From positions 4,512,001-4,576,000 of the forward strand of contig CBDASK010000003.1 of NCBI GenBank assembly GCA_965199495.1: 64,000 nt of DNA, in the 5' to 3' direction. Of this stretch, positions 408 through 63,926 are shown piece after piece. Every line of letters begins with the position of its first letter. Position 1 is the stretch's first letter. The notes beneath the pieces were generated by a model. The model was given only the letters and a program-made list of their open reading frames with translations. It was not told the DNA's origin and made no database searches. The position numbers and the translations under genes were made by a program. The DNA is from Abditibacterium sp. GTDB taxonomy: Bacteria; Armatimonadota; Abditibacteriia; Abditibacteriales; Abditibacteriaceae.

Positions 408-2288
408 ATGCAAAAGAGAAACCGATTTCGCCCGTTCATCTATGTTTTGGGCGCGGGCGCCGCGCTTCTGACCGGCGCGGGCGCGCTTCAATTTGGCCTG
501 GCGCAGGGCGAAACGCCCGCCGTGGCTGCGGCGCGCGCACCGCAAAACGGGCGTCCACAATACGATTTGCGCGCCGACATAGACGCCGATTTGCTGACGT
601 TTAACGCGACAGCCAACGTGACAGTGCCCGCGCAAGGCGCGCCTCTGAACCAAGCGGTTTTCTTTCTTTATGCCAACGCCGATGGCGTGGGCGGCGCCGG
701 AGCGAACCGCAAAAATCTCAAAGTCGAGAGCGTAAATGTGGACGGCGCGCCTGCGCAGTGGAACTTAAACGGCGCGGTTTTGCGCGTCCATTTGCCCGCG
801 CCGCGCTCGGATGCGTTTGTGGTGAACGTCAATTATAAAGGCGTCGTGCCGCGCTCGGATGGCAAAGACGACGATTTGATGGGCGGCATGATGGGAACCG
901 ATATTTCGGGTTTGCTGGGCGGAATGTTGGGCGGCCAAACCGGCGCCAATCAACCGGCGCCCGCGCCCAAAGCCGATAACACCGATTACGGATTATATAC
1001 CGCCAGTCGCAGCATCGTCAGTCTGGGCGCGTTCTGGTATCCGCAGTTGGCGGTTTTCCAAAACGGCAAATGGGCCGACGATGCGCCCGCCGGATTGGGC
1101 GATGTCGCGTTCGCCGTCAAAAGCGATTATCGCGTTTCCCTCGGCGTGCCCGCCAATTATACCGTCGCCGCGCCCGGTTCTGTTACGCGCGGCGCCGATG
1201 GGCGCGCCCAAATCGTCGCCAACGATGTGCGCGAATGCGCAGTTTTGATGAGTTCGGATTACGTTTCCAAATCGAAAGTCTTCGATGTGGCGGGCAAACC
1301 TGTCAAAGTCGAGGCGTTGGCGCGCCGCGAAAGTGCCGCCAAAATTGACCAAACGCTCGACGTGGCTGGTCACGCCTTGCAGATTTACGCCAAACGATTC
1401 GGGCCGTATCAATTCGACCATTTCAAAGTCGTCGAGGCGCCGATGAAGAGCGGAGCGGGCGGCATGGAATATTCGGGGATGACCGGCATTGCGTCGAGTT
1501 TGTATGGCGATATGGGCGCGCAGTTGGGCGGCATGATGAGTTCGCTCTCGATTCCCGGCGCCGACGAACTGCTCAAAAGTCTGGGCGACGATACATTAGG
1601 CGGCGGCGCGGCGCCCAACGAAAACGCGGGCGAAAATAATCCGGCCAATGGCACGCTCGATATGGTCGGCGGCATTTTGGGCCAGCAAAAAGAGATGCTC
1701 GATTCGCTGCTGGAAACCACGGTCGCCCACGAAGTCGCGCATCAATGGTGGGCGATTGGCGTGGGCAGCGACTCGCAAAAGCATCCGTTCGTGGACGAAA
1801 GCCTGACCAACTGGAGCGCGATGCTTTATTACGAAGATCGCTACGGCAAAGCCAAAGCGCAGCAGATGAGCGATTTGAATTTGAACACCTCGTTTTCGAT
1901 GGGCGCCATGCTGGGCGGCGGCGACAAACCGGCGAATTTGCCGACGGCGGCCTACACCAACAATCTGCAATACGGCGCCGTGATTTACGGCAAAGGCGCG
2001 ATTTATTTCGACAAATTGCGCGCTCTGGTCGGCGACGCGGCGTTCTTTGGCGCGCTGCGCGAATATTACGCCAGGTTCGACGATAAGTTGGCCGGGCCGC
2101 AAGATTTAAAAGCGATTGTCATCGAAAAAGCGCCCGCCAAACGCGTGCAAATCGAGGCGCTTTACACACGTTGGATTGACGAAGCGCACGGCAAAGAAGA
2201 CATCGGCGGCGGCATGATGGGCGGCATGGATTTGGGCGATTTACTCGGCGGCGCGTTGGGCGGTTTGGCGGGCGGCGGCGAAGAGTAG
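408..2288 (+). CDS. Secreted M1-family (gluzincin) metallo-aminopeptidase
   Basis: GGMEY exopeptidase motif, HEVAHQWW followed by downstream E (FVDES), YGKGA motif, N-terminal signal/TM segment. Confidence 0.85.
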   Translation: MQKRNRFRPFIYVLGAGAALLTGAGALQFGLAQGETPAVAAARAPQNGRPQYDLRADIDADLLTFNATANVTVPAQGAPLNQAVFFLYANADGVGGAGANRKNLKVESVNVDGAPAQWNLNGAVLRVHLPAPRSDAFVVNVNYKGVVPRSDGKDDDLMGGMMGTDISGLLGGMLGGQTGANQPAPAPKADNTDYGLYTASRSIVSLGAFWYPQLAVFQNGKWADDAPAGLGDVAFAVKSDYRVSLGVPANYTVAAPGSVTRGADGRAQIVANDVRECAVLMSSDYVSKSKVFDVAGKPVKVEALARRESAAKIDQTLDVAGHALQIYAKRFGPYQFDHFKVVEAPMKSGAGGMEYSGMTGIASSLYGDMGAQLGGMMSSLSIPGADELLKSLGDDTLGGGAAPNENAGENNPANGTLDMVGGILGQQKEMLDSLLETTVAHEVAHQWWAIGVGSDSQKHPFVDESLTNWSAMLYYEDRYGKAKAQQMSDLNLNTSFSMGAMLGGGDKPANLPTAAYTNNLQYGAVIYGKGAIYFDKLRALVGDAAFFGALREYYARFDDKLAGPQDLKAIVIEKAPAKRVQIEALYTRWIDEAHGKEDIGGGMMGGMDLGDLLGGALGGLAGGGEE

Positions 2289-2319
2289 CGACAGCAGCCA
2301 CGGCGAGCAGATATTCCGC

Positions 2320-3111
2320 TCACTTTTCGAGTTGGCGCCAGCGCATAATGGACATCGGCTGATTGAACCACGCATTGCGCGTTGGCGTTTTGACTTGGAT
2401 GACGCGATCCCCATAAAGTGCATTGGGGTCGGCTTCGATCCAAGTTTGATTTCCGATGTAGGCCACGACGTGAACGCCACTCGATGTAACAGCGATGTCG
2501 CCGGGCCGAATCGCTGAATAATCCAGATGATTGAGATCGGGCACCGCGAACAAAAACCGTGTTCTACCCTGATACTCTTCCTTGAGAGCTTTGGCGGAGC
2601 TATCGTTCCACCACAGCGAAAAACCTGCGCGAATCGCCGCCGGATTGAACGTGGTCAAACCCTGCTTCACATTGGCGTCAATGAGCGCGCACCGCATCAA
2701 GCCGGAACAGTCAATGCCACGCTTGCTTTCGCCGCCCCAAACGTAAGGCGTGCCGTCGTAATCTTGGAGCGCACGAACGTATTCCTGTCGAAGAATTTGC
2801 GGATTGACGGAGCGCGCGGGCAATAGCAGAAAACCCGCAAAAAGGCCGGAAGCGGCTAAAATGACTCGCTTGGCGATTTTATGTTTCCACAACAGACACA
2901 AAGCGCCCAACCACAAAAATGAGACGCCGACGACGAGAAAAAGACGCAAAGTGCCGAATCGAATTGGATACCAATGAACTGCCACAACCAGCAGCAAAAG
3001 GAGTAGCCACAGGATAAATCCCAGCTTTCTCCAACCTAAATTTCGCCGCGATTGGTTCGTGTTCACAGAATAAAAGTGTATCGAATTTCCAGCGTAACTT
3101 CGCTTCTGCAT
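2320..3111 (-). CDS. Membrane-anchored NlpC/P60 family protein
   Basis: GTPYVWGG...GIDCSG, PGD, HVVAY motifs; three N-terminal hydrophobic helices. Confidence 0.8.
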   Translation of the reverse strand: MQKRSYAGNSIHFYSVNTNQSRRNLGWRKLGFILWLLLLLLVVAVHWYPIRFGTLRLFLVVGVSFLWLGALCLLWKHKIAKRVILAASGLFAGFLLLPARSVNPQILRQEYVRALQDYDGTPYVWGGESKRGIDCSGLMRCALIDANVKQGLTTFNPAAIRAGFSLWWNDSSAKALKEEYQGRTRFLFAVPDLNHLDYSAIRPGDIAVTSSGVHVVAYIGNQTWIEADPNALYGDRVIQVKTPTRNAWFNQPMSIMRWRQLEK

Positions 3112-3116
3112 TTCTT

Positions 3117-18920: not shown

Positions 18921-20039
18921 ATGCCAGTCAGTTCAATGAAAGACTTGCTCGAAGCGGGAGTTCACTTCGGGCATCACACGCGCAAGTGGAACCCCAAAAT
19001 GAAGCCGTATATCTACGGCGCGCGCAACGATATTTACATTATCGACCTCCACAAAACCCGCAAGAAACTCGAAGTCGCCTACGATAAAGTGCGCCAGATG
19101 GCCTACGAAGGCAAATCGTTCTTGTTCGTCGGCACCAAAAAGCAGGCGCAAGACGCCATCGCCGAAGCAGCCACGTCGTGCAACAGCTTTTACGTCAACC
19201 ATCGTTGGCTGGGCGGAATGCTCACCAACTGGAATACGGTGCAGTTGCGCATTGACCGCTTGAATCAAATCGACAAGATGAACGAGGACGGCACTTTGGC
19301 CAAGCTGGTCAAGAAAGAGCAGTTCCGCATCATGGAAGAGCGCGAAAAGCTCGACAACGTTTTGGGCGGCATCCGCACCATGACGAGCTTGCCCGACGTG
19401 ATTTTCATCATCGATTGCAAAAAGGAACATATCGCCATCAAAGAGGCGCACCGCCTGGAGATTCCGATTGTCGCCGTCGTTGATACCAACTGCGATCCGG
19501 AAGAAATTGATTACGTAATTCCCGGCAACGACGACGCGATTCGCGCCGTTTCGCTGATGGCCGACCAGATGGCGCAGGCGATTAACGAAGGTCGTTTGAT
19601 GGCGGAGAGCGTGCGCGAAGAGCGCGCCGGACAATTATCCGGTGCGGGCGCGGCGCACTTTGGCGGCGGACAGATCGACTATGTCGGCGCCGAGAACGTG
19701 CAGTTCTCGCCGGTTTCGACCGACGACGATGAATCTTCGTTTGAGGAAGAGATGGCGAAACCGTTAGGCGAAATGCCGCGCGACGCCAAAGGCGATACCG
19801 ACGTTGACGCTTCGGCACGCGCGACTGGCGGCATGAACGTCGGCGCGACTTCGCTGGGCGATGCCGCGATGTTCGAGCCAGCCGCGCAGACCACGACCGA
19901 CGAGAGCTTCGCCACGGGTGGCGCCACGGTTATCGACCAGCCAGTTGAGGGCAAGCCGACGCCGGACGCGGTTCCCGTTATCGAGAACGAAGGTGGCGCG
20001 GTTGACCGCGAAGTCAACAAAGCCGTCGCGAACGCGTAA
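18921..20039 (+). CDS. rpsB: 30S ribosomal protein S2 with long acidic C-terminal extension
   Basis: [48 protein letters not shown] upstream of ATG 18921. Confidence 0.97.
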
Positions 20040-21209: not shown

Positions 21210-21285
21210 GGAAATGGCCCGCTCTCCGAACTGTGACCTTCATGGATCGCGTGACTCGCAAGAGTATAGGAAGCGGGCCGAACTC
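21210..21285 (+). ncRNA. Putative DUF3800-associated structured RNA
   Basis: Closing stem GGCCCGCT(21216-23)/AGCGGGCC(21272-79), internal ACTC-GCAA-GAGT GNRA hairpin, located 3' of a DUF3800-like gene. Confidence 0.55.
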
Positions 21286-25306: not shown

Positions 25307-25383
25307 TTCGTGCCTCGAATTGACTCAGACCGACGCAATTCAAAATACACTCAAGAGCGCGCTTCTTTGCGCGTGACTTTCTC

Positions 25384-27228
25384 TTGCCTTCTCCCAAAAC
25401 TCCTTTCGACCGCAACGACGCCGATAGCGCGCGGGCCGTCGCGCGCAAACTGATTCCCGACCCGAAGGCGCGCCGTCGCGCGCTCGAATTTTTGCGCGAT
25501 GGCATCGCGCGCGCGCACGCCATTGACGCGGCCAGTTGGGGCGTGACATTGGCGCCCAGTCGCATTCGTTTCAACGTGGGGCGCGGCAGTCGTCTGACAA
25601 TTGCGCCCGATGCGCTCGAATGGAAAGGTCACGAAAGCGCGAAAATCGAAACCGAAAGCGATGTCAAAATGCCCGACGATTGGCTCAACGCGTTAGAAAT
25701 CGAGGCGAGCGAATTCGAGGGCGCTTGGTTTTCCAATCCGGCGTGGCGCCAGGCGCATTCGCCGGGCGTTTTGAAACTGCTGGAAGAAGAGTTCGGCCAG
25801 CCGATGCCCACGCCCGATTACGCGCCACAAAATGTGGAGTCCGACGAAAACTCAGATTGGAAAGCGACGCTGCAAAACGTGATTGTAAGCGCCGATTTGC
25901 GGCTCGATGCGAATTACTTGGCGACGTTTTTCACCGCGCTCCAACTCAAAGGTTTCGCGGTTTTGAGCGGCCTGAGCGGGACGGGAAAAACGCGCTTGGC
26001 GACGAGTTTCGCGGCGCTATTGCCGCAACCGGGCGCGAGCGAAACGCAGGCGCACTTGGACGAAAATTTCGCCGTCAACGGGCGTTTGCATCTGCCCGCG
26101 CCCGCCGCGCGTTTGCTGAGCGGCGCGCGCGCGACTGTCACCTGCGAAGGCGCGGCGCATCCGGCGAAAATCGAAAAAAATTCTCTCGTTCTGCGCGGCG
26201 CTGGGCGCAAATGCGCCCTGAAATTGTTTGGAGAAGGCGCGCCCATCGGCGTCGAAAGCGAGTGGGACGACGCGGGCTACGCCAATTTCCGCTTGTTGCC
26301 GCTCGCGCCCAATGAAACGCCGAGCAATCATTTGTTCGTGCCGGTGCGGCCCGATTGGAGCGACGGCAAAGCGCTGTTAGGCTACTTCAACCCGCTGTTG
26401 TCGCGCTACGAATGGACGCCATTTCTCCGATTTCTGCTGCGCGCCGACGCCGGTTTTCGCGCCAACGACGGCATCGCTTATTTCGTGATTTTGGACGAGA
26501 TGAACTTGGCGCGCGCCGAACATTATTTCGCCGATTTGCTCTCGATTACAGAAAGCGGGCGCGATCAAATGGGCCGCACGCGCGAGCCGCTACGCTTCGA
26601 GTTCGACGCGCGCGCGAGTGGCGATTTGCCGCCGCGCGAATTGCGGTTGCCGCCCAATTTATATTTCGTCGGCACGCTCAACGCCGACGAAACGACTTAC
26701 GCGCTGTCGCCGAAAGTTTTGGATCGCGCGTGGATGCTGCAAGCGCCGCCCGTTGATTTTTGCGATTACCCGCCCAACATCGCCGCGCCCGCTGATGCAG
26801 CCACGGCGCCCGTGGCTGCATTGGCGCGCGTCGAGTTAAATCGCGTTTTCACACGCGACGGCCAGTTCGCGCGCGAAGATAAATCGTTAGTCGCGCGCGA
26901 ATTGGAAGCGCAACCCAAATGGCGCGACGATTTGCAAATTTTGAACGAACAATTGCAAGCGCACGACGCCGGTTTCGGCTATCGCGTCTTCGACGAAATC
27001 GTCGCGTTTTGCGCGTTATCGCGCCAGAGCGGCGCGTTTGAATCGGTCGAAATCGCCTTCGATTGCGCCGTGTGCGCCAAAATCCTTCCGCGATTAAGCG
27101 GCGCGCGCAATTCAGTTGAAGCGCCGCTGCAAATTATCGCGAGTTGGGCCAGTGAACGCGATTTGCGTCAAACGGTGGAGGCGGCAAATCGGCAAATCGC
27201 GAAGTTGGAGCGCGTGGGTTGGTTATAA
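25384..27228 (+). CDS. McrB-like AAA+ NTPase
   Basis: Walker A GLSGTGKT, VRPDW, Walker B ILDEMNLAR, GTLNADET (NxxD), SPKVLDRA. Confidence 0.8.
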   Translation: MPSPKTPFDRNDADSARAVARKLIPDPKARRRALEFLRDGIARAHAIDAASWGVTLAPSRIRFNVGRGSRLTIAPDALEWKGHESAKIETESDVKMPDDWLNALEIEASEFEGAWFSNPAWRQAHSPGVLKLLEEEFGQPMPTPDYAPQNVESDENSDWKATLQNVIVSADLRLDANYLATFFTALQLKGFAVLSGLSGTGKTRLATSFAALLPQPGASETQAHLDENFAVNGRLHLPAPAARLLSGARATVTCEGAAHPAKIEKNSLVLRGAGRKCALKLFGEGAPIGVESEWDDAGYANFRLLPLAPNETPSNHLFVPVRPDWSDGKALLGYFNPLLSRYEWTPFLRFLLRADAGFRANDGIAYFVILDEMNLARAEHYFADLLSITESGRDQMGRTREPLRFEFDARASGDLPPRELRLPPNLYFVGTLNADETTYALSPKVLDRAWMLQAPPVDFCDYPPNIAAPADAATAPVAALARVELNRVFTRDGQFAREDKSLVARELEAQPKWRDDLQILNEQLQAHDAGFGYRVFDEIVAFCALSRQSGAFESVEIAFDCAVCAKILPRLSGARNSVEAPLQIIASWASERDLRQTVEAANRQIAKLERVGWL

Positions 27229-39973: not shown

Positions 39974-41230
39974 TTAATCTTCGTCCTCATCGCTCCCACT
40001 GAGCAATTTGTCCAAACCGGCGCCCTTGGCTTTGCTACGCAAATGCCGTAGCGCGCGCAATTCCAATTCATTGATGCGGTCGCGCGATAAACCCAACGCC
40101 TTGGCGACATCTTCGCTCGAAAGCGAACCGGCGTTGGCGTAATTGCCCAGACCGAATCGCATCGAAATCACGTCTTGTTCGCGCTCGCTCAAACCTTCGA
40201 GCAACTTGTTGACGCCCGACGCGACTTCGCGTTTGGCGGCGGCATCGGCGACGACTTCGACATCGTCTTCGGTCAACTGCTCGTTTAAATCGGCGCCGTC
40301 TTCGCCGCCGCCCGACGACAAATCGAGCGACAACGGCGACAATGCCGCGCGTTGCGCTTCCTCGATTTGAGCGACCGTTAAACCGCTCGCTTCGGCAATT
40401 TCTTCGCGCGTGGGCGAGCGATCCAACTTCTGTGACAATTCGCGTTGCGCCTTTTGCATCTTCTCGATGGCTTTATACAATTCGCCGCTCAGCTTCATCA
40501 TGCGCGAATGTTCGGTGATGGCGCGGTTCATCGCGCGCCGAATCCACCAGGTCGCATACGAGCCGAAAGTTTTGTTCGAGTCGGGCCGATAACGCTCGAC
40601 CGCATCAATCAAACCGATATTGCCTTCTTGCAGCAAATCGGTAATTGAAAGCGACGTGCGCGCCGCCGCCGCTTTGGCGATGTGAACGACCAAACGTAAA
40701 TTCGATTCGACCAAATCGTTGCGCGCTTTGGTCGCTTCGTCGGGCGCGCCGTGATGCGCAATCGCCGCCAGAGCGCGCTCGGTTTGCGCGTCCAAACGCG
40801 GCACGCGGCCCATGCGGTCGAGATAGATTTTGAGCGCGTCGTCCACCGGTTTCTGTGCGTCGTCAATGTCTTCGCCCGCGTAAAGCTCTTCTTCCTGCGC
40901 GATAAATTCGGCGACCGAACTCAAATCATCGTCTTTGCCGATGTTTTCTAAATCCGACAAAATCGCGTCCAAATCCGAATGCGCATCGTCGGTTTTCGGC
41001 TTATTTTTCTTAGCTTTTTTCGGTTGCGCGGGCGCTTCTTCGACCACGGGAATCGCGCGGCTTTCGAGCGCGCTCAGAATATCTTCGATGTCGGTCTCGT
41101 CGAGTTCGAGGTCAATTAATAAATCGTTGATCTGGGCAAACGAGATTTTTCCGTCGCGCGCGCCGCGTTCGATAAGGGCAGCCACGGCGGGCTGCTGCAA
41201 AAGTTCGTCGGGAGACTGTGTGTATGCCAT
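39974..41230 (-). CDS. RpoD-like sigma-70 factor paralogue (has region 1.1, divergent region 4)
   Basis: NLRLVVHIAK, DLLQEGNIGL, F.SYATWWIR, LSERE..VI.MRFGL. Confidence 0.85.
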   Translation of the reverse strand: MAYTQSPDELLQQPAVAALIERGARDGKISFAQINDLLIDLELDETDIEDILSALESRAIPVVEEAPAQPKKAKKNKPKTDDAHSDLDAILSDLENIGKDDDLSSVAEFIAQEEELYAGEDIDDAQKPVDDALKIYLDRMGRVPRLDAQTERALAAIAHHGAPDEATKARNDLVESNLRLVVHIAKAAAARTSLSITDLLQEGNIGLIDAVERYRPDSNKTFGSYATWWIRRAMNRAITEHSRMMKLSGELYKAIEKMQKAQRELSQKLDRSPTREEIAEASGLTVAQIEEAQRAALSPLSLDLSSGGGEDGADLNEQLTEDDVEVVADAAAKREVASGVNKLLEGLSEREQDVISMRFGLGNYANAGSLSSEDVAKALGLSRDRINELELRALRHLRSKAKGAGLDKLLSGSDEDED

Positions 41231-43278: not shown

Positions 43279-44829
43279 TCAGTTTTCCGCCCGTCCCCAG
43301 CCTCCACCGCCCGGCGTGGCTATGGTCAAACGTTCGCCCGTCGCGAACTCTCGCGTAAATTGCGCGGGCATCGCAGACATGCTTTCTAAGTTTGTCAGAT
43401 TTCGCCCAACTGCGCCCTGTTTTCCCTGATTTGCCCCCGGCGGCGCCGTTTCGCGCCGCGTCGAAAGCATCGTCACCGTCGCGTCGCGCAAAAATTCATA
43501 TTCGCGCACCAACCCATCGCCACCGCTATTTAAACCCTGACCACCCGAACCTTGACGAACACAGTATTGCGTCACTCGGAGCGGAAAAGCACGTTCGAGC
43601 GCCTCAACCGGCGTATTGAGCGTGTTGGTCATATGAGTTTGCACCGCGCTCGCGCCTTTGCGCACCGGTGAAGCGCCCGCGCCGCCGCCCAGCGTTTCGT
43701 AATACGTCCACGGCGCGCCGTTTTCATCGGTTCCGCCCATCGTCACGTTGTTCATCGTGCCCGCGCTGCACGCCGGAATTTGATCGGGCAACGCGTGCTG
43801 CATCGCTTGCGTAATTACGTCAACGATGCGCTGCGAAGTCTCGACGTTGCCACCAGCCACGGCGGCGGGCGATTGCGCATGAACAACGCTTCCACGCGGC
43901 GCCACAACCGAAATCGGCGCGAAAGTGCCTGAATTTAACGGCACATCTTCGCCCAGCAAACACGCGACAACATAATAACACGCGCTGAGTGTTATCGCCT
44001 CGACCGCATTCAAACTGCCCGCGACTTGTGGCGCAGTGCCGCTAAAATCGAAACCAATCGAATCGCCGTCAATCGTCATTGCCAACCGAATTTCGGCGAG
44101 TTCATCGCCGCATTCCAAAACGTCAGCCGCGCAATAAATTCCGTCCGGCCAACTCGCGATTACAGCCCGCGAACGCTTTTGCGCGTAAGTTTGCAGATGG
44201 CGCGCGTAAGCCATTAATTCGCCGTGGCTACTGTTCGCGGCGAGTTCGCGCAAACGTTCGTCGCCGCGAAAGAGCGCCGCGAGTTGCGCTTCCAAATCGC
44301 CGCGCCGTTCGTCGGGCGTGCGCGTGTTGCGCAAGATTATTTGCCAAACCGCGTCATTGCGTTTGCCGTTTTCGACTAAAAGTAGCGGCGGAATGATCAA
44401 ACCTTCCTGATAAATTTCGCGAGACAACGGCAAACTGCCCGGCGACATGCCACCAATATCGGCGTGATGCGCGCGATTGGCGACGAAGAAATCGGGCGTA
44501 TTATTTCCGCAAAAGACCGGCGCGACAACGGTAATATCGGGCAAATGCGTGCCGCCCGCGAATGGATCATTGAGAATAACGACATCGCCTTCGCGCCAAG
44601 CAGCCACGGCACCGCGCGCGGCGGTGACGCTGGCCTTCATCGCGCCCAGATGAACCGGAATATGCGCGGCCTGCGCGACTAATTCGCCCTGAGCGTCGAA
44701 AATCGCGCACGAGAAGTCGAGCCGTTCTTTGATGTTGGGCGAAAACCCGGTGCGTTTCAAAGCCTCGCCCATCTCTTCGGCGATGCCCGCGAAACGATGG
44801 CGGTAAAGTTCGAGTGTGATCGAATCCAT
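43279..44829 (-). CDS. Hydantoinase B/5-oxoprolinase family protein
   Basis: SPNIKERLDFSCA, HIPVHLG, NDPFAGGTHLPD, HHADIGG, GGNVETSQR, TPGGGG. Confidence 0.9.
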   Translation of the reverse strand: MDSITLELYRHRFAGIAEEMGEALKRTGFSPNIKERLDFSCAIFDAQGELVAQAAHIPVHLGAMKASVTAARGAVAAWREGDVVILNDPFAGGTHLPDITVVAPVFCGNNTPDFFVANRAHHADIGGMSPGSLPLSREIYQEGLIIPPLLLVENGKRNDAVWQIILRNTRTPDERRGDLEAQLAALFRGDERLRELAANSSHGELMAYARHLQTYAQKRSRAVIASWPDGIYCAADVLECGDELAEIRLAMTIDGDSIGFDFSGTAPQVAGSLNAVEAITLSACYYVVACLLGEDVPLNSGTFAPISVVAPRGSVVHAQSPAAVAGGNVETSQRIVDVITQAMQHALPDQIPACSAGTMNNVTMGGTDENGAPWTYYETLGGGAGASPVRKGASAVQTHMTNTLNTPVEALERAFPLRVTQYCVRQGSGGQGLNSGGDGLVREYEFLRDATVTMLSTRRETAPPGANQGKQGAVGRNLTNLESMSAMPAQFTREFATGERLTIATPGGGGWGRAEN

Positions 44830-44859
44830 GTTTTGGGTTATTTGGTTTTTGTCGAGATT

Positions 44860-45091
44860 GGTCGTTTTGCGATTATAGGTTTGAGGAGAGCATTGACTGC
44901 TGCCCCTCACCCCAGCCCTCTCCCACAGGAGAGGGAGCCACTTACTTGCGAGCAGTGGCGCGAGGAACTGACTTACAAGCCAGTTCTTGCAGCTCATACT
45001 CTCCAGCGAGTGGCTCCCTCTCCTGTGGGAGAGGGCTGGGGTGAGGGGCAGCAGTCAATGCTCTCCTCAAACTCATAATCGCAAAACGACC
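44860..45091. repeat. Long inverted repeat of the CCCTCACCCCAGCCCTCTCCC family
   Basis: About 83-bp near-perfect arms at 44860-44943 and 45009-45091. Confidence 0.85.
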
Positions 45092-45130
45092 CATTCTTCG
45101 CTTTCCCCTAAAATCCTACTCAGCGAAAAC

Positions 45131-46235
45131 CTATTCTTCGCCCACCGTATGTTCCAGATACGCATAAATAAACGGGTCAAAATCGCCGTCCATCACACCG
45201 GGAATATCGGCGGTTTCGTGGCTCGTCCTCAAATCTTTCACCAATTGATACGGCTGAAAAACGTAGTTGCGAATTTGACTGCCCCACTCGTTCGACAAAA
45301 CTTCGCCGCGCAAACTGGCGATATGTTCGCGCCGCTTGCGCCATTCCAACTCGAACAATTTCGATCTTAAAACGCGCATCGCGACTTCCTTGTTTTGCAA
45401 CTGCGAACGCTCGTTCTGACACTGGGTGACAACGCCGGTCGGAATGTGCGTGATGCGAATCGCCGTCTCGTTTTTCTGCACGTTCTGGCCGCCCGCGCTC
45501 GACGCGCGAAAAGTATCAATGCGCAAATCTTTGTCGTCAATTTCGACTTCGACGGTATCGGCGATTTCGGGCACGACATCAACTGAGGCAAAGCTCGTCA
45601 TGCGTTTGCCCTGCGAGTTGAACGGCGAAATCCGCACCAACCGATGCACGCCCGCCTCGGCCTTGCAATGGCCGTAAGCGTTTTCACCCTTGATAATCGC
45701 CGAAAAACCTTTGAGTCCAGCTTCGTCGCCGGGATTTTCTTCGATGACTTCGACGCTAAATTTTTTGCGGTCGGCCCAGCGCAAATAAGCCCGAACCATC
45801 ATCTGTGCCCAGTCCTGCGCTTCGGTTCCGCCCGCTCCGGCGTTGACCGAAAATATCGCGTTATTGGCGTCGTATTCGCCCGAAAATAATAATGTGCGCT
45901 CGAAAGCGCGGTATTCTTTGTCGAGTTGGGAAAATTCGCCGTCAATTTCTTTCGCCATGCTTTCGTCGCTTTCGGCTTGCGCCATTTCGACCAATTCGAG
46001 CAAATCGGCGGCGCGTTTATCGAGTGTGTCGAACGGCAAAACAAAGGCGCGGCCCGCCGAAAGTTGGCGCATAATATCCTGCGCGTTTTCGGTATCGTTC
46101 CACAAATCGGGGTCTTCGGCCTGCGTTTCTAATTCGGTTAATTGTGATTTTCGTTGAGGCAGGTCAAAGACCATCACCCTTGGCGCGCAACCCTTGGCGG
46201 ATCGCTTCGAGCGCATCTTTCGTGTGTTCTAACAT
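45131..46235 (-). CDS. prfB: Peptide chain release factor 2 (programmed +1 frameshift at 46169-46163)
   Basis: SPF and GGQ motifs; ATG 46235 reads 23 codons to CTT-TGA-C, preceded by an internal SD-like GGTGAT. Confidence 0.95.
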
Positions 46236-46275
46236 TGCGATTTAAGTTAAGCAGGATTTGGCCATGAAAGAAGAT

Positions 46276-47133
46276 TTACAAAGTTTTATACCAATCGGAA
46301 TCTACACTAACCTCTTCGACAACTTGGGTTGTAATACCAAGTCCTAACTCTCTCAACTTTTCCGCGAGTTGTTCACCATCCACCAAATCGATTGGCGGGG
46401 CGCCATCACGGATAGCTTCTTTAATGGCGTCTCTGGTGAAAGTGCCAGTTGTGACGAATAGTCCTTTATCGGCGCGCCCAACCATTGCACCGCGAAAATC
46501 ACGGATTGCGCTCGACGAAACCGAACCTTGATATTTCTTACATTGAAATATAACGTGAAAACTGAGCAATCCATTGATACGAGCGATACCTTTTCCATCT
46601 ATGCCACCGTCGCCGCTTCTTCCAGTAACTTCGACTTGCACAAATCCTGATTCGCGTAAAAGGCGTTTCACCAAACGCTCAAAAGCGTTGGCATCCATTT
46701 CTTGGGTCAGAATGTGGTGCAGTTGCTCTTTCCAAGTTAAGTTCTCTGTGGATGCAATTTCGTTATCCGCATCATTAGCAGCAACCGAAATGTTTTTCCC
46801 GACCTTATCCATTTCGCGCACAAAGCGCACAACTTCTTTATGATTAACTTTTTCGATGTGGCGTTTATCAGGCACAATTGCCCATACACCGCGACTGGAA
46901 TTTTCTAATATCCCATACTTTTTTAAGTAAGTGCGCGCCCATGCAAGACGATATCCGATTTCTGTTTGGTTGCTCTTTTCAGCGTTATGCGGCACATTCA
47001 AAATATCTTCGGGCAGATTCGTAATTTCGGTGACTTTCTCGTAAATTTCTTCAATCGATCCAGAGCCTCCGAGTTGTTTGAGCGCCTGCAAAAGCGGATT
47101 CATCAAGAGTTCGTAAGGCGGGATTTGTTTCAT
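46276..47133 (-). CDS. mrr: Mrr-family type IV restriction endonuclease
   Basis: Mrr_N wHTH (YRLAWARTYLKKYG..ENSSRGVW) plus catalytic GDGGIDG...QCK.Y, RDFRGAM, LVDGEQL; low GC. Confidence 0.85.
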   Translation of the reverse strand: MKQIPPYELLMNPLLQALKQLGGSGSIEEIYEKVTEITNLPEDILNVPHNAEKSNQTEIGYRLAWARTYLKKYGILENSSRGVWAIVPDKRHIEKVNHKEVVRFVREMDKVGKNISVAANDADNEIASTENLTWKEQLHHILTQEMDANAFERLVKRLLRESGFVQVEVTGRSGDGGIDGKGIARINGLLSFHVIFQCKKYQGSVSSSAIRDFRGAMVGRADKGLFVTTGTFTRDAIKEAIRDGAPPIDLVDGEQLAEKLRELGLGITTQVVEEVSVDSDWYKTL

Positions 47134-47167
47134 AATGTTTCGTTTTTCAGATTCTACGCACCCTATT

Positions 47168-47265
47168 TTACTCCAACGCCTCGTCCAACAGATACGCCAA
47201 AACCAGATTCGTCGTCGCCACAAATCCATCCAAATGCACGCGCCAGATTTCCATAACGCGTCGCT
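47168..47265 (-). pseudogene. Relic duplicate of the 3' end of the M42 peptidase gene
   Basis: Encodes RVHLDGFVATTNLVLAYLLDEALE* versus intact RTHLDGLVATTNLVVAYLLDEALE*, plus a DALWKSGA fragment. Confidence 0.75.
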
Positions 47266-47330
47266 ACTTCTGCAAATAGCCCGTTAATCCAGTGTTATTA
47301 CCTTGACTTATTTTATTTTTTCATGATAGA

Positions 47331-47359
47331 TTGACAACAAATTGGAGTTATCATAAAAT
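47331..47359 (+). promoter_or_regulatory. Sigma-70 promoter of the Dyp peroxidase gene
   Basis: TTGACA-17 bp-TAAAAT. Confidence 0.6.
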
Positions 47360-47442
47360 CATCGTGGCTTCGCTATTCATATAACTTTAAGAGTAAAAAT
47401 TGTGCAGCCGCCGTTGGAAAACCATTGAAAAAGGAGAATTTC

Positions 47443-48903
47443 ATGTCAATCAATCTCGACCTCAAGCGAATCGATGCGAACGCCGCACAATTTGCCCCCA
47501 TGCTCAGCCACTTGCAGGGCAACATTCTGAAGGGGCACGGACGCGACCACACCGTCCATTTCTTTTTGCGATTCAACGTCACGGGAACGCACGCGCGTTC
47601 GCATGTGAAGCAGTTGGCGAACCGCTATGTCACTTCGGCATTGAAGCAACGGGACGACAGCAACGACTTCAAAACTTTTGGTATTCCGGGCACGCTCTTT
47701 GGCAACCTACTGTTATCCAGCGATGGCTACCGCGCCCTTGGTTTTACCGATGCCGAAATTGATGAGGCCTTCGATCAGGAACCGGTGCGTAGCGCGGGCG
47801 ATGCCGTAAAGTCGTCCTTCAAAACGGGCATGAAAGAATTCGCTCAAGACGATTTCAATGACCCGCCCGTTATAGATTGGGAAGAGGGTTTTCAGGGTCG
47901 CATTGACGCGATGCTGCTGTTGGCCGACGATGATCCGCAACTGTTGTTGCGCGAGGCGCACGCGGCGCTGGGACGTTTGCGGGAGTTTTGCGACATCGTT
48001 CATGTCGAACACGGCCACGCGCTACGCACGCCCGAAGGCGAAGGCATCGAACACTTCGGTTATGTGGATGGGCGCAGTCAGCCACTTTACTTTAGTCAAG
48101 ACTTCAATCAGGACGAAGGGCCAACCGATGTGTGGGATCCCGCTGAACCGTTGAAACGTGTTCTCGTGGCGGATCCGATGCTTTCGGTCGTTGGAGCCAA
48201 TGCAGCCGATGCCTTTGGCTCTTACTTCGTTTTTCGCAAACTCGAACAGAACGTGTTGGGTTTCAAGACGCGCGAGCGCGAGCTGGCCGAAGCCTTGAAT
48301 TTGGCGGATGTCGAGCGCGAGCGGGCGGGCGCGATGGCGGTTGGACGTTTCGAGGACGGCACGCCGGTGGCTCTATCGCGGAGCGACGGATTTGTGCCCG
48401 TCAAAGACAATAACTTCACCTACGACGTTGATGCCGACGGACTCAAATGTCCCTTTCAAGCTCACATTCGCAAAGCGAATCCGCGCGGTGACATCGAGCG
48501 CAAACTCGTTCCCGGTGGCGACCTCGAACAGTTGGAGCGCAGCCGCCGCGTCACGCGACGCGGCATTCCTTTTGGACAGCGCGACACCCATCCGCAATCG
48601 TTCCAGTCACTCGATGAATTGCCCAGTCACGGCGTAGGGTTGCTGTTCATGTGCTTTGGATCCAGCATCGCCAATCAGTTCGGTTTCATGCAAAAGTCGT
48701 GGATTAACAACGCGGACTTTGTGCTTCCCGGCACTGGAGTTGATCCGGTCGTCGCAGAAAATGACAGTGCGCCTGTGCCGCAAGAATGGCCCACGGAATG
48801 GGGCAAAAACGGAAAAACGCCGTTCTCCTTTGAGGGGTTCGTCCATTTCAAAGGCGGCGAGTTCTTTTTTGCTCCCAGCATTCCCTTCTTTAAAAAGTTG
48901 TAG
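47443..48903 (+). CDS. Dyp-type (dye-decolorizing) heme peroxidase
   Basis: QGNILKGHGR, EHFGYVDGRSQP (GxxDG), AHIRKANPR proximal His, RRGIPFG, GLLFMC; SD AAGGAG. Confidence 0.9.
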   Translation: MSINLDLKRIDANAAQFAPMLSHLQGNILKGHGRDHTVHFFLRFNVTGTHARSHVKQLANRYVTSALKQRDDSNDFKTFGIPGTLFGNLLLSSDGYRALGFTDAEIDEAFDQEPVRSAGDAVKSSFKTGMKEFAQDDFNDPPVIDWEEGFQGRIDAMLLLADDDPQLLLREAHAALGRLREFCDIVHVEHGHALRTPEGEGIEHFGYVDGRSQPLYFSQDFNQDEGPTDVWDPAEPLKRVLVADPMLSVVGANAADAFGSYFVFRKLEQNVLGFKTRERELAEALNLADVERERAGAMAVGRFEDGTPVALSRSDGFVPVKDNNFTYDVDADGLKCPFQAHIRKANPRGDIERKLVPGGDLEQLERSRRVTRRGIPFGQRDTHPQSFQSLDELPSHGVGLLFMCFGSSIANQFGFMQKSWINNADFVLPGTGVDPVVAENDSAPVPQEWPTEWGKNGKTPFSFEGFVHFKGGEFFFAPSIPFFKKL

Positions 48904-48924
48904 AAGATTGGATTAATCCCATTG

Positions 48925-48961
48925 AAAATCCTGCCTATATGGAAGTCGGCAGGATTTTTTT
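48925..48961. terminator. Intrinsic terminator between convergent dyp and M42 genes
   Basis: AAAATCCTGCC...GGCAGGATTTTTT. Confidence 0.75.
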
Positions 48962-48976
48962 GGTCGTCGTTTTAAA

Positions 48977-50032
48977 TTACTCCAACGCCTCGTCCAACAA
49001 ATAAGCCACGACCAAATTCGTCGTCGCCACCAACCCGTCCAAATGCGTGCGCTCGACGCCGTGCGTCGCGTCAACACCCGGCCCGATGAGAGCCACGCGC
49101 GCGTCGGCGCCCGATTTCCATAAGGCGTCGCCGTCGCTGCAATAGTGCGGAAAGGTGTCAACGACCAAATCAATATCAAACTCGCGCGCCAACCGTTTCA
49201 GACGGCGGCGCATTTTTAGGTCATACGGGCCGTCGTCGTCGCGCGCGCAGACGGTGCAACGATGTTCGTCGCTGTGCTGGCCTTGGCCGGTTGGCGCGAT
49301 GTCGAGCGCGAGCATTTCGTGAACTGCGGACGAGACATTAGTCGCGCCGCCATGACCGACTTCCTCGTAATTGGGAATGTGAATCGTTGTGTTTTGCGCC
49401 GGTTTGAGTCCGGCATCGTGCAAGGCTTTGACGGCAGTGAGCAGACAAGCCACGAGCGCTTTGTCGTCGAGAAAACGCGCGCGAATATAATCGTGATTCC
49501 ATTCGGGCGACGAATCGAACGCAACACAATCGCCCACGCAAACGCCCAATTTTTCCAGTTCGTCGCCCGTGCGCGCGGGCGTGTCCAAGCGCACTTCCAT
49601 GTGCGCGTCGTCGCGCGGCGTTTCGCCGTTGCCGCTGGCATGAATGTGATGCGAAGCGTTGGTCACCAAAACAACGCCGCGAAATTCGGTGCCGTCGTCG
49701 GTCGTGACCGTGACGGTTAAGTTTTCGATGCTATTCCACGAGTAATTGCCCAACTTGGCGAGCGTAATTCGTCCGTTGGGTTTAATCGCTTTGACGACGG
49801 CGCCCAGCGTATCAACATGCGCGGTCACGGCGCGCGGCGCGCTGTCGGATTTGCCGGTCATTTGTCCGGTCACGACGCCTTTGCGCCCGACTTCGACGCG
49901 GAAATCGAACTGGCACAAAAGTTCGACGCACAAATCGGAACCACGCTGAGTGAAACCAACGGGCGAAGGTGTATTGAGCAGACGGGTCAGCGTGGAACGC
50001 AGGTAAGAAATATCGAGAGACGGCAGAGACAC
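48977..50032 (-). CDS. M42-family metallopeptidase
   Basis: PSPVGFT, AHVDTLG, LDDKA, YEEVGHG, GPGVDATHG.ER. Confidence 0.85.
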   Translation of the reverse strand: MSLPSLDISYLRSTLTRLLNTPSPVGFTQRGSDLCVELLCQFDFRVEVGRKGVVTGQMTGKSDSAPRAVTAHVDTLGAVVKAIKPNGRITLAKLGNYSWNSIENLTVTVTTDDGTEFRGVVLVTNASHHIHASGNGETPRDDAHMEVRLDTPARTGDELEKLGVCVGDCVAFDSSPEWNHDYIRARFLDDKALVACLLTAVKALHDAGLKPAQNTTIHIPNYEEVGHGGATNVSSAVHEMLALDIAPTGQGQHSDEHRCTVCARDDDGPYDLKMRRRLKRLAREFDIDLVVDTFPHYCSDGDALWKSGADARVALIGPGVDATHGVERTHLDGLVATTNLVVAYLLDEALE

Positions 50033-50047
50033 GAAGGCGCGCTGTTT

Positions 50048-50063
50048 TGCACGCGGCGTGCCA
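50048..50063 (-). promoter_or_regulatory. Candidate sigma-54 -24/-12 promoter
   Basis: Minus strand TGGCACGCCGCGTGCA, one mismatch from TGGCACG-N4-TTGCA, just upstream of the GTG start. Confidence 0.6.
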
Positions 50064-50254
50064 TAAGTTTTGATTCGCCACAAAGTTAACAGAAGAGAAC
50101 GAAGAAATTAAACGTAAAAACACGAACATAAATTGTGGTTCTTCTACATTTTAATTTCTTCGTATTCTCTGTGCCCCTCTGTGCGTTCTCTGTGAACTCT
50201 GTGGCTAAAAACATTCGCAATTTCGCTAAATATCGCCATACTGGGGCGACGACT

Positions 50255-51346
50255 ATGACAATCGGAATTTTAGGCGGCGGCCAGCTCGCGCGCATGTTGG
50301 CGTTGGCGGGTTATCCGCTCGGTTTGCAATTCAAGATATTCGACGCCGCGCCCGACGCGCCCGCCGGACAACTCGCGCCCCTCCTCGCCGAAGACCCCAA
50401 CGACACGCCCGCGCTGCTGTGGTTTTCGCGCGGCCTCGATGCCATCACCTACGAATGGGAAAACGTGCCCGTCGCTTCGACGCGTTATTTAGAGCAGCGC
50501 GTCCCGGTTTTCCCGCCGCCGCGCGCTTTGGAAATCGCGCAAGACCGCGTCATCGAAAAAACCTTTTTCCGCGATTTGGGCGTGCCCGTCCCGCCATTTG
50601 TCGCCGTCGAAACGCGCGCCGAACTGGACGCCGCCGTCAGCGAATTGGGCTTGCCGTGCATCTTGAAAACGCGACGTTTTGGTTACGACGGCAAAGGCCA
50701 ATTTCGTCTCGAAACGCCGCGCGATATTGATAAAGCGTGGCAAGAACTGGGCGGCGTGCCTTTGATTACGGAAGGTTTCGTGCCGTTTACGCGCGAATTA
50801 TCAATCATCGTGGCGCGCGCGCAAGATGGCGAAAAGCAGTTTTATCCGCTCGTCGAAAATCATCACGCGCAGGGTATTTTGCGATTGTCCATCGCGCCCG
50901 CGCCCGATACTGCCGACTTACAAGCCACGGCGCAGGACTACATCGCGCGCATCGCCGACGAGTTGAATTACGTCGGCGTTTTGGCGCTCGAACTGTTTCA
51001 AGTCGGCGACGAATTATTGGCCAACGAAATCGCGCCGCGCGTGCATAATTCGGGACATTGGACAATCGAAGGCAGCCAAACCAGCCAATTCGAGAATCAC
51101 CTGCGCGCCGTGGCTGGCTTGCCGTTGGGCGCGACAAACATGAAAGCGCCGTTTGCCGCGATGATTAATCTCATCGGCGTTTTGCCGCCTTTATGCGATG
51201 TTTTGCAAATTCCCGGCGCCAGCGCGCACTATTACGGCAAAGAAATTAAGCCGAATCGCAAAGTCGGACATATTACGGTTGTTGCGCAAACGATGGACGA
51301 ATTGCGCGAGCGGATTGCGGCGGCGCAAAAATTGGCGAAAATTTAA
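50255..51346 (+). CDS. purK: N5-carboxyaminoimidazole ribonucleotide synthase
   Basis: GILGGGQLARM, TYEWENV, GYDGKGQ, NEIAPRVHNSGHWT, SQFENHLRA, RKVGH. Confidence 0.95.
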   Translation: MTIGILGGGQLARMLALAGYPLGLQFKIFDAAPDAPAGQLAPLLAEDPNDTPALLWFSRGLDAITYEWENVPVASTRYLEQRVPVFPPPRALEIAQDRVIEKTFFRDLGVPVPPFVAVETRAELDAAVSELGLPCILKTRRFGYDGKGQFRLETPRDIDKAWQELGGVPLITEGFVPFTRELSIIVARAQDGEKQFYPLVENHHAQGILRLSIAPAPDTADLQATAQDYIARIADELNYVGVLALELFQVGDELLANEIAPRVHNSGHWTIEGSQTSQFENHLRAVAGLPLGATNMKAPFAAMINLIGVLPPLCDVLQIPGASAHYYGKEIKPNRKVGHITVVAQTMDELRERIAAAQKLAKI

Positions 51347-61105: not shown

Positions 61106-61114
61106 ACAAAAACG

Positions 61115-61295
61115 TAGGAGTTACGCAGTTGGGTGCGCTTGTCATGGGTGCGCAGTGAGGCACGAGCGAAGTCGAAGAATCCATGACCTAATGGCAGTGA
61201 CGAAAGCGAAATCAACGTGCAACCGTTGGATTCTTCGACTTCGTTCGTGCCTCACTGCGCACCCATGACAAGCGCACCCAACTGCGTAACTCCTA
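61115..61295. repeat. Long inverted repeat / MITE-like element (about 69-bp arms)
   Basis: TAGGAGTTACGCAGTTGGGTGCGCTTGTCAT...GTCGAAGAATCCA and reverse complement; inner part shared with 20064-20222. Confidence 0.8.
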
Positions 61296-61304
61296 AAACG
61301 AACA

Positions 61305-62228: not shown

Positions 62229-62282
62229 AGTAACTTTGACGTTTTCCCTCACCCGCCTTCGCAACACCAAAACTCGAAATCA

Positions 62283-63926
62283 ATGAACCCCGACCCCATC
62301 GCCCGTCGCCAATTTCTGCGCATTTGCGCGCAGACCGCGCCCGCTCTGCTCGCGCCCGCGCTGTTGTCGGCGTGCGCGCGCAACACCGAAATCGCGTCCG
62401 CGACCAACGGCGCGACGCCAACAGCCACGCCGCCTTCGCCGTTGTTGAGTCCGAGCGCCAAATTCGCGGGCCAAAACCTTAAATGTGATATTTTGGTGAT
62501 GGGCGGCACGCCTGCGGGCATTGCGGCGGCGATTGCGGCGGCGCGTCTGGGCGCGCACGTTATTCTGGTCGAGGAGCGCCCGCTTCTGGGCGGCGACATC
62601 GTTTACGCGATGCTCAATATGTTCGACGTGCCGATGCAACGCGACGGCTCGACGCGGCTGGCGCACGGGATTTTTGGCGAGTTTTATAAAAAATTGGGCA
62701 GCGCCTTCGATGTCGGGCGCGCACAAAAACTGCTGGAAGAAAAAGTCGCCGCCGAACGCAATATCACGACGATGACCAACACGCATTTGGTGCGCGCGGT
62801 TGGCGATCACGGGCTGGCGAAGGGCGCGCTTGTCATTTCCAAACACGACGGCAAATTAAAGCGCATTCGCGCGAGCGTGATGATTGACGGAACGGGCGAC
62901 GCCAGCTTCGCCGATGCGGCGGGCGCGCAATCGTTCATTGGGCGCGAAAGCAGTGGGCACGACAAAAAAATGCAAGCGGCGGGATTGTTGTTCGCCGTTC
63001 ATGGTGCCGTCTGGATTGATATGATCAATTATGTCACCGCCGTCAAAATGATTCCCTCTCCGACGCCGCTTCCAGAAACTATCGGCGGCCCGATTCCCGA
63101 CGCATCGGATGGGGCGCGCATTGCGCCCAAACGCATTAAACATCGGCTGGGCGGCGCCAACGACCGCTATTTATGGGAGCGCGGCGATGTCGTCGCCGCC
63201 TACCAGCCACGGGGCGCGGATGTGTTGGCGATGTCGATTAATTTCGGCTTGCAACGCGATGGCAGCGTGGTTTTGAATACGCTCAATTCGATCAACGTCA
63301 ACGGTTTGGACGTGAAATCACGCCGGCGCGCGCACGCCGAAATCGTGCGCGAACTCGATACTTTTATTCCTTATTTGCACGGCGCGATGCCGGGCCTGGA
63401 AAACATTCGCGTGTCGAGAATCGCGCCCGAACTTTATATTCGCGAAACGCGCCATCTCAAAGGAGTTAAGACGCTGCAAGTGGACGATATTCGCAGCGGC
63501 AAAAAATTCTGGGATCGGATTGGTCTGGCGTCGTATCCGATTGATTTGCATCCCTACGAAAAGGCCGATTTCAACTTGTTCGAGCCGGAGCGCTATTTTT
63601 ACACGATTCCTCTGGGCACTTTGGTGCCGCGCGATGCGGACGGCGTCTTTGTGGCGTCGCGCAGTCTGTCGGCGAGTTACGAGGCGGCGGGTTCGTGCCG
63701 CGTGATTCCCGCGACGATGGCGATGGGCGAGGCGGCGGGCGTGGCTGCCGTTTTCTGTCTGCATAAGAAAATGACACCTCATACGATGATGAAAACGCCG
63801 CCGATGGTTTCGGGCGTTCAAAAGCAGTTACGCAAGCAGGGCGCCGATATCGGCGACGAAATTCCGGTCGAGCAAACGATTTTAGGCGCCGACGGTTTGC
63901 GGGCTTTGCCGCGCGGAGTGAATTAA
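62283..63926 (+). CDS. FAD-dependent oxidoreductase with twin-arginine lipoprotein-like signal
   Basis: RRQFL Tat motif, LSAC lipobox, GGTPAGIAAA, IDGTGD, YIRETR, YPIDLH, MAMGEAAG. Confidence 0.8.
   Translation: MNPDPIARRQFLRICAQTAPALLAPALLSACARNTEIASATNGATPTATPPSPLLSPSAKFAGQNLKCDILVMGGTPAGIAAAIAAARLGAHVILVEERPLLGGDIVYAMLNMFDVPMQRDGSTRLAHGIFGEFYKKLGSAFDVGRAQKLLEEKVAAERNITTMTNTHLVRAVGDHGLAKGALVISKHDGKLKRIRASVMIDGTGDASFADAAGAQSFIGRESSGHDKKMQAAGLLFAVHGAVWIDMINYVTAVKMIPSPTPLPETIGGPIPDASDGARIAPKRIKHRLGGANDRYLWERGDVVAAYQPRGADVLAMSINFGLQRDGSVVLNTLNSINVNGLDVKSRRRAHAEIVRELDTFIPYLHGAMPGLENIRVSRIAPELYIRETRHLKGVKTLQVDDIRSGKKFWDRIGLASYPIDLHPYEKADFNLFEPERYFYTIPLGTLVPRDADGVFVASRSLSASYEAAGSCRVIPATMAMGEAAGVAAVFCLHKKMTPHTMMKTPPMVSGVQKQLRKQGADIGDEIPVEQTILGADGLRALPRGVN

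Follow-up and report, generated by a model that had tools for sequence, protein, structure and literature searches.

Hyper-abundant self words have been described in Neisseriaceae, Pasteurellaceae and cyanobacteria; their cause is argued, with drive, mate choice and repair each put forward. The DNA uptake sequence (DUS) of Neisseriaceae, GCCGTCTGAA, has the pilin ComP as its receptor. Like the uptake signal sequence (USS) of Pasteurellaceae, AAGTGCGGT, it is non-palindromic, occurs about once per 1-1.5 kb on both strands equally and shows no replichore bias; both words are reported to be more evenly spaced than random, scarce in acquired DNA, found as inverted pairs and placed at tolerant codons, to enrich their own peptides, and to gain copies that often differ at several bases from the orthologs (PMC2817400, PMC2397512, PMC7811141). 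The orientation of the USS is reported to make no difference to uptake (PMC1939737, Table 4). For the highly iterated palindrome HIP1 (GCGATCGC) and the alternate HIPs of cyanobacteria, links to mismatch repair and transformation have been proposed (PMC4390886, PMC13756078, PMC5861425). Here we describe a word of this kind from a little-studied phylum, the octamer CAGCCACG, which an earlier note on a 64,000-nucleotide stretch of an Abditibacterium chromosome (the window, G000:C3:4512001-4576000; genome G000, 4.81 Mb in three contigs) had singled out as a candidate uptake-like signal. We found that each DNA strand is tiled with this word on its own, with a reach of about 1-1.5 kb, a strand-specific spacing that is absent from the earlier account.

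All 50 exact copies counted by the earlier note in the window (521..63747) were recovered at the stated coordinates, 26 on the + strand and 24 on the - strand. Few are indeed expected by chance, with 1.88 ± 1.55 in dinucleotide shuffles (largest 6) and 3.0 under an order-3 Markov model. The longer form AGCCACG-N-CG has 41 copies in the window and one per 1.6 kb on the chromosome contig C3 (4.72 Mb), where CAGCCACG occurs 1,558 times on the + and 1,525 times on the - strand (3,083 in total) and is present in every 100-kb bin. The whole genome holds 3,091 copies where an order-3 Markov model gives 237, and at k = 7-11 the word heads the k-mer lists. The enrichment is therefore confirmed both in the window and in the genome. 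The gene content of the window is ordinary (39 called genes scanned, including rpsB, tsf, the primary sigma factor and rpoN), and the copy inside rpsB indicates that the word is written into core genes (Table 1).

The copies are spaced by strand. Among the 50 copies in the window, 17 pairs no more than 700 bp apart are on opposite strands and none on the same strand. Genome-wide, we counted 109 same-strand pairs at 30-500 bp where 423 are expected (ratio 0.26), and the ratio rises to 0.65 for distances of 0.5-1 kb, 0.88 for 1-1.5 kb and 1.05 for longer ones, whereas opposite-strand pairs at 30-500 bp occur as expected (425 against 422, ratio 1.01). In genes shorter than 1.2 kb with exactly two sites, one site lies on each strand in 176 of 198 cases (98 expected). 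The exclusion is seen for pairs inside genes (65 same, 298 opposite), across oppositely oriented genes (4 and 24) and involving intergenic sites (20 and 56); it therefore concerns the DNA strand and not the mRNA, which excludes a signal at the mRNA level. The related genome G011 shows a matching pattern (4 same, 13 opposite, among the first 100 listed of its 2,667 sites), and six unrelated words do not show the exclusion.

An opposite-strand excess is limited to distances below 50 bp, where the self-complementary CG-N-CG tail and hairpins favour such pairs; some inverted pairs are intergenic, and the close inverted pair at 26798..26818 serves both strands simultaneously. Between copies we found no helical phasing of 10-11 bp. 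The 5' and 3' members of close pairs do not differ in flank strength (p 0.14-0.91), an observation more in keeping with a need for one copy at any point of the strand than with scanning that starts at an end. In a toy birth-death simulation, which is illustrative and was not fitted to the data, orientation-blind redundancy depletes both pair classes (0.47, 0.40) and opposite-strand redundancy yields the reverse of the data, so that only same-strand rules match. The literature searched, supplementary tables lying outside the search, contained no account of strand-specific spacing or of this word, and none of comparable words in Abditibacteriaceae, in line with the earlier remark that the signal is not recognised as described.

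The exclusion also delimits the motif. AGCCACC is excluded near strong sites (0.32), in contrast to AGCCACA and to one-base variants at core positions 2, 4 and 5 (1.15, 1.00 and 0.93); the working core is therefore AGCCAC[G/C], and the working motif (WGC)AGCCAC[G/C](BCG). The flanks read A(0.49) G(0.58) CAGCCACG [G 0.42, C 0.36, T 0.18] C(0.82) G(0.75), so they are graded as proposed, but the informative extension lies mainly on the 3' side (AGCCACG-B-CG). The perfect form CAGCCACGGCG has 1,051 copies, and each single change within AGCCAC leaves 0-31. The 18-mer with full flanks (Table 1) is also present, identical, at 4671 and 24230, as had been noted.

Enrichment persists when codon usage is preserved. 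In coding DNA (3,757 genes called by our own Markov gene finder in G000, so that coding counts are approximate), the octamer occurs 2,844 times against 259 ± 14 after synonymous-codon shuffling and 197 ± 14 after shuffling codon order, and the 11-mer CAGCCACG[GCT]CG 1,946 times against 51 ± 5 after synonymous shuffling, while eight control octamers reach 0.15-2.1 times their own synonymous-shuffle values. Thus none of the outcomes that the earlier note had named as refuting its proposal was observed. Copies lie both in genes and between them, as the earlier note had stated, at 72 and 29 per 100 kb respectively, but only 4 of the 50 copies in the window are not wholly in called genes. All six reading frames are used (1,232, 843, 314, 304, 85 and 66), and this, with the codon shuffles, bears out the view that the word is not a protein motif. 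It does bend the peptides of its host proteins: in G000 the motif encodes 437 of 556 AAT[AP] and 882 of 1,350 [ADG]VA[AVG] peptides, which require Ala codons that are rare there (GCA 6%, GCT 10%), and motif-encoded tetrapeptides number 230 in G000 against 128 at the matching aligned positions of motif-free relatives. A codon or peptide artefact is ruled out by the codon shuffles, the use of rare Ala codons and the peptides of the motif-free orthologs.

The word is not polarised along the chromosome. Replichores are clear in G000, where TA skew flips near 1.95 and 4.4 Mb and the KOPS-like (FtsK-orienting polar sequence) word GGGCAGGG is polarised 197:28, and CAGCCACG is found 1,471 times on the leading and 1,442 times on the lagging strand (50.3-50.5% leading). 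This agrees with the strand balance by which the earlier note had set it apart from Chi and KOPS, and it excludes roles tied to the replichores (those of Chi and KOPS, and priming). Around the sites, a weak G-over-C flip vanished once sense and antisense sites were split. The chromosome itself has almost no GC skew, and only 50-52% of its genes are on the leading strand.

In foreign-looking DNA the word is scarce, and so the depletion foreseen for acquired islands is present. The small contigs C1, which is plasmid-like, and C2 (25 kb and 65 kb) hold one and two copies of AGCCACG-N-CG, respectively. On the chromosome, 16 motif gaps exceed 10 kb, many with odd GC content, and a cluster of gaps at 1.12-1.26 Mb contains restriction and helicase genes. 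The compositionally least typical fifth of genes has 0.53 sites per kb compared to 0.64-0.76 in the remainder. A clustered regularly interspaced short palindromic repeat (CRISPR) array of 131 repeats on C3 has 130 spacers, none with a strong motif copy. Two restriction-type loci lie in the window itself: a Mrr-family gene at 46276-47133, in the longest motif gap, and, at 23864-27228, a DUF2357 gene adjoining an AAA-ATPase gene, which we take to be a McrBC-like pair and which carries the motif as core genes do.

The word is lineage-specific, as had been suspected. CAGCCACGBCG is enriched in 3 of 27 family genomes (G000, 1,067 + and 1,046 -; G011, 864 and 912; G004, 379 and 341), and the remaining 24 have 12-94 copies; these three group together with 100/100 support in a single-gene tree of ComEC (13 rows). 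When GTDB was scanned for the inverted pair, 7 of 64 loci were word-dense, all titled Abditibacterium or Abditibacteriales, and these seven were pooled with the data from G004 and G011; 0 of 32 metagenome loci were dense. A viral scan for the inverted pair gave no match, and among 80 listed of 120 viral stretches with the single word none had host-like tiling; in one of them (L366), 10 of 12 copies are on one strand within 5 kb. In the 10 other genus genomes, no other dispersed word that might be a dialect was found in the 26-100 kb sampled per genome, where the top words were CRISPR, tandem or low-copy repeats resembling repetitive extragenic palindromes (REPs).

Sites come and go by substitution at tolerant codons while the spacing persists. 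Of the G000 sites compared in aligned orthologs, G011 retains 36 of 63 (24.6 expected) and G004 38 of 162 (40.5 expected from control windows). Sites differing between G000 and G004 at 4-6 of 8 bases number 45 against 18, and amino-acid divergence at site codons is 0.26 compared to 0.14-0.18. Such multi-base differences, together with the raised divergence and low retention, indicate turnover by substitution at tolerant codons; indeed, flanks are unrelated between G000 copies and sites arise by substitution in aligned codons. Similar multi-base gains have been reported for DUS (PMC2397512). G004 differs in having a looser 3' flank and in that the word is also an arm of a GTAG-started REP-like repeat in inverted doublets (GCCAYGTCCT, 606 + and 666 -, against only 21 and 20 copies in G000 and G011). 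This repeat is possibly a REP that spread after acquiring the word. The doublets (L015-L019, L160-L175) are ~33 bp apart, with >1,200 copies of the repeat, which is close to a low-copy GTAG hairpin of G000, G003 and G007; two GTAG REP families on C3 of G000 have 155 and 84 copies.

What would require one copy per strand every kilobase or so? A need that applies per strand irrespective of how replication or transcription runs, reaches ~1-1.5 kb and has no fixed positions most simply points to a tag that is counted when a strand acts alone. The reading that we prefer, to which we give about an even chance, is that the word serves across the genome as a tag that is recognised on one strand, while DNA is single-stranded during homologous gene exchange by transformation or recombination, and that it spread by drive rather than by selection. 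The most likely step would be after one donor strand has entered through ComEC. A strand with at least one copy would be protected, or loaded for recombination, more often than a copy-free strand. A new copy would then spread by molecular drive only where there is no same-strand copy within the length of the recombining tract, about 1-1.5 kb; opposite-strand copies would not count, either strand could enter, and the direction of replication would be irrelevant. During transformation a single strand is reported to enter the cytoplasm (PMC7811141), and conversion tracts in Neisseria are reported to be 1.1-1.7 kb (PMC2397512). ComEC is full-length in G000, and dprA, comEA, comM, comF, pilB/T and recA were located there by sequence patterns, among them competence genes of the kind that the earlier note had suggested looking for.

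Several observations weigh against a tag for gene exchange. Selection for per-strand coverage in repair would be expected to give the same exclusion equally well. ComEC is present in 13 of 13 genus genomes, 10 of which do not have the word. The reader proteins named below are candidates only, and competence itself is putative. We are not aware of any step at which incoming single-stranded DNA is recognised by its sequence, and none was found in the literature searched. The word is no more frequent in genes for repair and competence (0-5 copies each in 16 genes), and the 16S/rRNA region has normal density, with 4 strong sites in 5.6 kb. Finally, one genome in the small DUS control described below (G457) reached 0.43 for same-strand pairs. 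A conserved 16S stretch of G000 (L001:1987-2012) contains AGCCACGGC followed by CAGCAGCCGCGG, both near the motif, which is probably a coincidence.

Among the alternatives, the one that survives best, although we consider it unlikely, is an unpolarised Chi-like site for a Dna2/Cas4-like nuclease-helicase (Table 1). This enzyme would resect or trim one strand and be attenuated at the word, and two-ended breaks or linear donor DNA would require sites on both strands. An AddA ortholog (query, the G009 protein) is present in all 10 motif-free genomes of the genus and in none of the three motif genomes, and the Dna2-like gene occurs in exactly those three of the 13; from this gene content, the clade appears to have replaced AddAB by the Dna2/Cas4-like enzyme. 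Its best sequence match is Dna2, its residues Cys 35, 279, 282 and 288 are arranged as an iron-sulphur (Fe-S) staple, and the predicted structure of residues 1-960 (predicted local distance difference test score 88) matches the EXO5, Cas4, AdnA and AddB nucleases over ~300 columns; PF12705 in G000 matches only an island gene and this gene. About 20 relatives have 62-89% identity, the next ~40%, and 21 of the 401 genomes of the phylum have a homolog. In the toy model, the observed pattern is reproduced by a directional same-strand rule as well.

However, one gain on one long branch is a single event, and many genes will share such a pattern; 14 other family genomes have no AddA ortholog either. 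In G011 the gene is a pseudogene, frameshifted and with its 5' half missing (a short fragment in its place is presumably nucleotidyltransferase-like), yet 864 + and 912 - copies of the word are kept; the aligned genes of G011 have fewer sites than those of G000 (41 against 63), which may or may not be decay. In the 36-149 kb sampled from each of eight distant carriers of the homolog, seven are without a dispersed word; the word of the eighth, G017, is a REP-like hairpin. We observed no directional shadowing. Known Chi sites are replichore-polarised, and the word is not. The G017 repeat was set aside as support for the enzyme, as it is a 24-bp hairpin and genomes without the gene have palindromes too. 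This repeat, AGTACGGTCGA-WW-TCGACCGTACT with AT-rich flanks (G017:C14:600001-800000, L185-L194), has 1,260 + and 1,307 - half-sites genome-wide, is found in 0 of 120 other phylum genomes, and looks like a REP starting with GTAC.

Less likely again is a strand mark for repair, that is, a one-strand methyl group or nick site that would mark the old strand about every kilobase on each strand, in the manner of the HIP1 model but without a palindrome. Sequence patterns place MutS and MutL in G000, and the sister genera have HIP-like palindromes built on an AGTACT core (TCGAGTACTCGA, GAGTACTC, GCAAGTACTTGC and AAAGTACTTT; Table 1), evenly spaced at one every ~0.9-1.2 kb, where one site would serve both strands; these are mostly in open reading frames, with coefficients of variation of spacing of 0.51, 0.59, 0.63 and 0.79 compared to about 0.94 for random placement. 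The 1-1.5 kb scale also matches the reach of methyl-directed mismatch repair in the HIP model as reported in PMC4390886. On the other side, a ratchet form of the model predicts, by our own reasoning and in the toy model, exclusion of opposite-strand copies, which is opposite to what is observed; nor does proximity to a site lower the four-fold divergence from G011 and G004. A graded motif of 11-13 bases is long for a methylase site.

None of six methylases searched for in relatives was both common to the clade and confined to it. A CcrM-like methylase is in 10 of 13 genus genomes, an MmeI-like one in 0 of 5 other genomes, two type ISP enzymes and an Eco57I-like one either are distant from their counterparts or broken in G004, or occur in motif-free genomes, and the family-wide beta-class methylase was not found in G004; each was rejected as a clade-specific reader. 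The orphan beta-class methylase of G000 (G000:C3:1807692-1808459, L274) has orthologs in 22 of 27 family genomes. Most members of the genus strongly avoid GTAC (0.03-0.27 of expected), whereas G002, G010 and G012, which are without this methylase, do not; G004 and G009 are also without it, yet avoid GTAC. Directly behind mutS lies a MjaI-family restriction-modification pair (G000:C3:2187698-2192266), and CTAG is avoided (0.06 of expected).

A classical uptake sequence, in which double-stranded DNA would be read at the cell surface as for DUS and USS, we think improbable. The word is non-palindromic, occurs about once per 1.5 kb on both strands equally and unpolarised, has a strict core with graded flanks, is scarce in foreign-looking DNA and forms hairpin pairs; pilus and competence genes are present, and the peptide enrichment resembles that reported for uptake words (PMC2817400). 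An orientation-blind receptor, however, predicts that opposite-strand copies are redundant, and these stand at the expected number (425 against 422). For a control, four DUS-rich genomes were found among 401 of the order of G401 and taken as Neisseriaceae by the word alone; G784, G699, G431 and G610 served that scan only as background, and nothing here depends on them. For three DUS-rich genomes (932, 1,237 and 1,900 sites), the first 100 + strand sites of each gave observed over expected same-strand pairs at 30-500 bp of 12/28, 34/27 and 25/35, pooled 71/90 or 0.79; in G792, 50 listed sites gave 9/13 same-strand and 8/11 opposite-strand pairs, although this both-strand listing may be incomplete. 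The small DUS control thus shows no strand-specific effect, in agreement with the reported orientation-independence of USS uptake (PMC1939737). In addition, DUS and USS are reported to be under-represented in coding DNA (PMC2817400), where the present word is over-represented. Uptake sequences are also enriched in terminator pairs; of the present word, some inverted pairs between genes exist.

Least probable of all is that the word is a by-product of REPs and their associated tyrosine transposases (RAYTs), or that a nucleoid or chromosome-handling protein binds it: nucleases of the RAYT type act on single strands and the word is an arm of the REP-like repeat of G004, but the G000 sites have unrelated flanks and arose by codon substitution, the repeat is not enriched in G000 or G011, no examined Y1 transposase locus is flanked by it (16 loci and 5 G000 regions), and both the missing helical phasing and the chance-level retention in G004, by which exact position is immaterial, speak against a nucleoid protein. 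Of the earlier proposal of an uptake, recombination or nucleoid-binding signal, what stands is that the word is clade-limited, unpolarised and scarce in foreign DNA; the nucleoid role is unsupported, since copies are unphased and sites turn over.

The features discussed are collected in Table 1. The sole Rfam match in the window, a DUF3800-IX RNA (47.9 bits), is at 21216-21283, just downstream of tsf.

Table 1 Coordinates of selected features (positions in the window unless a genome is named).
Feature	Position	Strand	Remarks
18-mer with full flanks	2288..2305	+	end of peptidase M1 gene; core not wholly within called gene
CAGCCACG copy	19168..19175	+	within rpsB (ribosomal protein S2)
Close inverted pair	26798 (+), 26811 (-); 26798..26818	+/-	within AAA-ATPase gene 25384-27228
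Close inverted pair, reverse order	28542 (-), 28558 (+); 28542..28565	-/+	within gene 28081-29007
CAGCCACG copy	41179..41186	+	in primary sigma-70 gene (39974-41230, - strand); antisense to mRNA
Longest exact-octamer gap	44609..51108		6.5 kb; contains release-factor gene and Mrr-family restriction gene, atypical composition
Dna2/Cas4-like nuclease-helicase gene	G000:C3:4111365-4115630 (L156:6368-10630)	-	1,421 aa; PD-(D/E)XK and superfamily 1B (SF1B) helicase domains
AGTACT palindromes	G020 (L249-L250), G022 (L255-L256), G014 (L251-L252), G018 (L263)		45, 43 and 30 in 40 kb; 21 in 17 kb

As the word is non-palindromic, it reveals an independent tiling of the strands that HIP1 cannot, and this tiling would indicate a step, not yet described, at which single-stranded DNA is recognised by its sequence. 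The family offers a natural comparison, with motif-free, non-palindromic, palindromic and REP-borne versions in close relatives, and the strand-resolved spacing test can be applied to any such word. A wider proposal, which we regard as doubtful, is that strand-tiling tags form a class apart from DUS/USS, Chi and HIP1, which would be needed about every 1-3 kb per strand irrespective of replication direction and read on single-stranded DNA by a sequence-specific, Dna2/Cas4-like Fe-S nuclease-helicase that displaced AddAB in this clade, with sister genera using palindromes or inverted pairs of another word instead.

How, then, does the word compare with the known systems? To DUS and USS it is unrelated in sequence and it belongs to another phylum, while it shares the traits given for them at the outset, from density and strand balance to tolerant codons, enriched peptides and multi-base gains. 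The comparison drawn in the earlier note therefore holds for density, strand balance and lack of a palindrome; it does not extend to redundancy, which is strand-specific here (same-strand 0.26, opposite 1.01), or to placement, since the word is denser in genes than between them. Two further differences are that USS and DUS are reported to be scarce in rRNA genes (PMC7811141), in contrast to the 16S region here, and that sites turn over between species. The Chi sites of RecBCD and AddAB are likewise short, non-palindromic and over-represented, and the - strand reading of the word is rich in TGG/CTG like E. coli Chi (GCTGGTGG, PMC1939737); Chi is read orientation-dependently on one strand, with which the strand-specific spacing of the word would fit. 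The enrichment of the word is 11- to 40-fold compared to 5.7 reported for E. coli Chi (PMC1939737); unlike Chi, the word is 50.5% leading, shows no directional shadowing and occurs in a genome from which the AddAB of the genus is absent. HIP1 and the alternate HIPs resemble it in being hyper-abundant, mainly coding, present about once per 1-1.5 kb and replaced by lineage-specific alternatives, but the word is not a palindrome, has no clade-specific methylase among the six candidates searched and lacks the opposite-strand exclusion that a HIP ratchet implies. KOPS (GGGNAGGG) is also a non-palindromic octamer read directionally, and differs in being polarised, as the separate KOPS-like word of G000 is. 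GTAG-family REP elements include the word in G004, whereas in G000 and G011 its copies are dispersed in codons with unrelated flanks and without shared 5' tetranucleotide hairpin copies. In summary, the word evolves most like DUS and USS and has a strand dependence like that of Chi, but lacks a defining trait of each, orientation-blindness for the former and replichore polarity with AddAB or RecBCD for the latter, and it is not a palindrome like HIP1.

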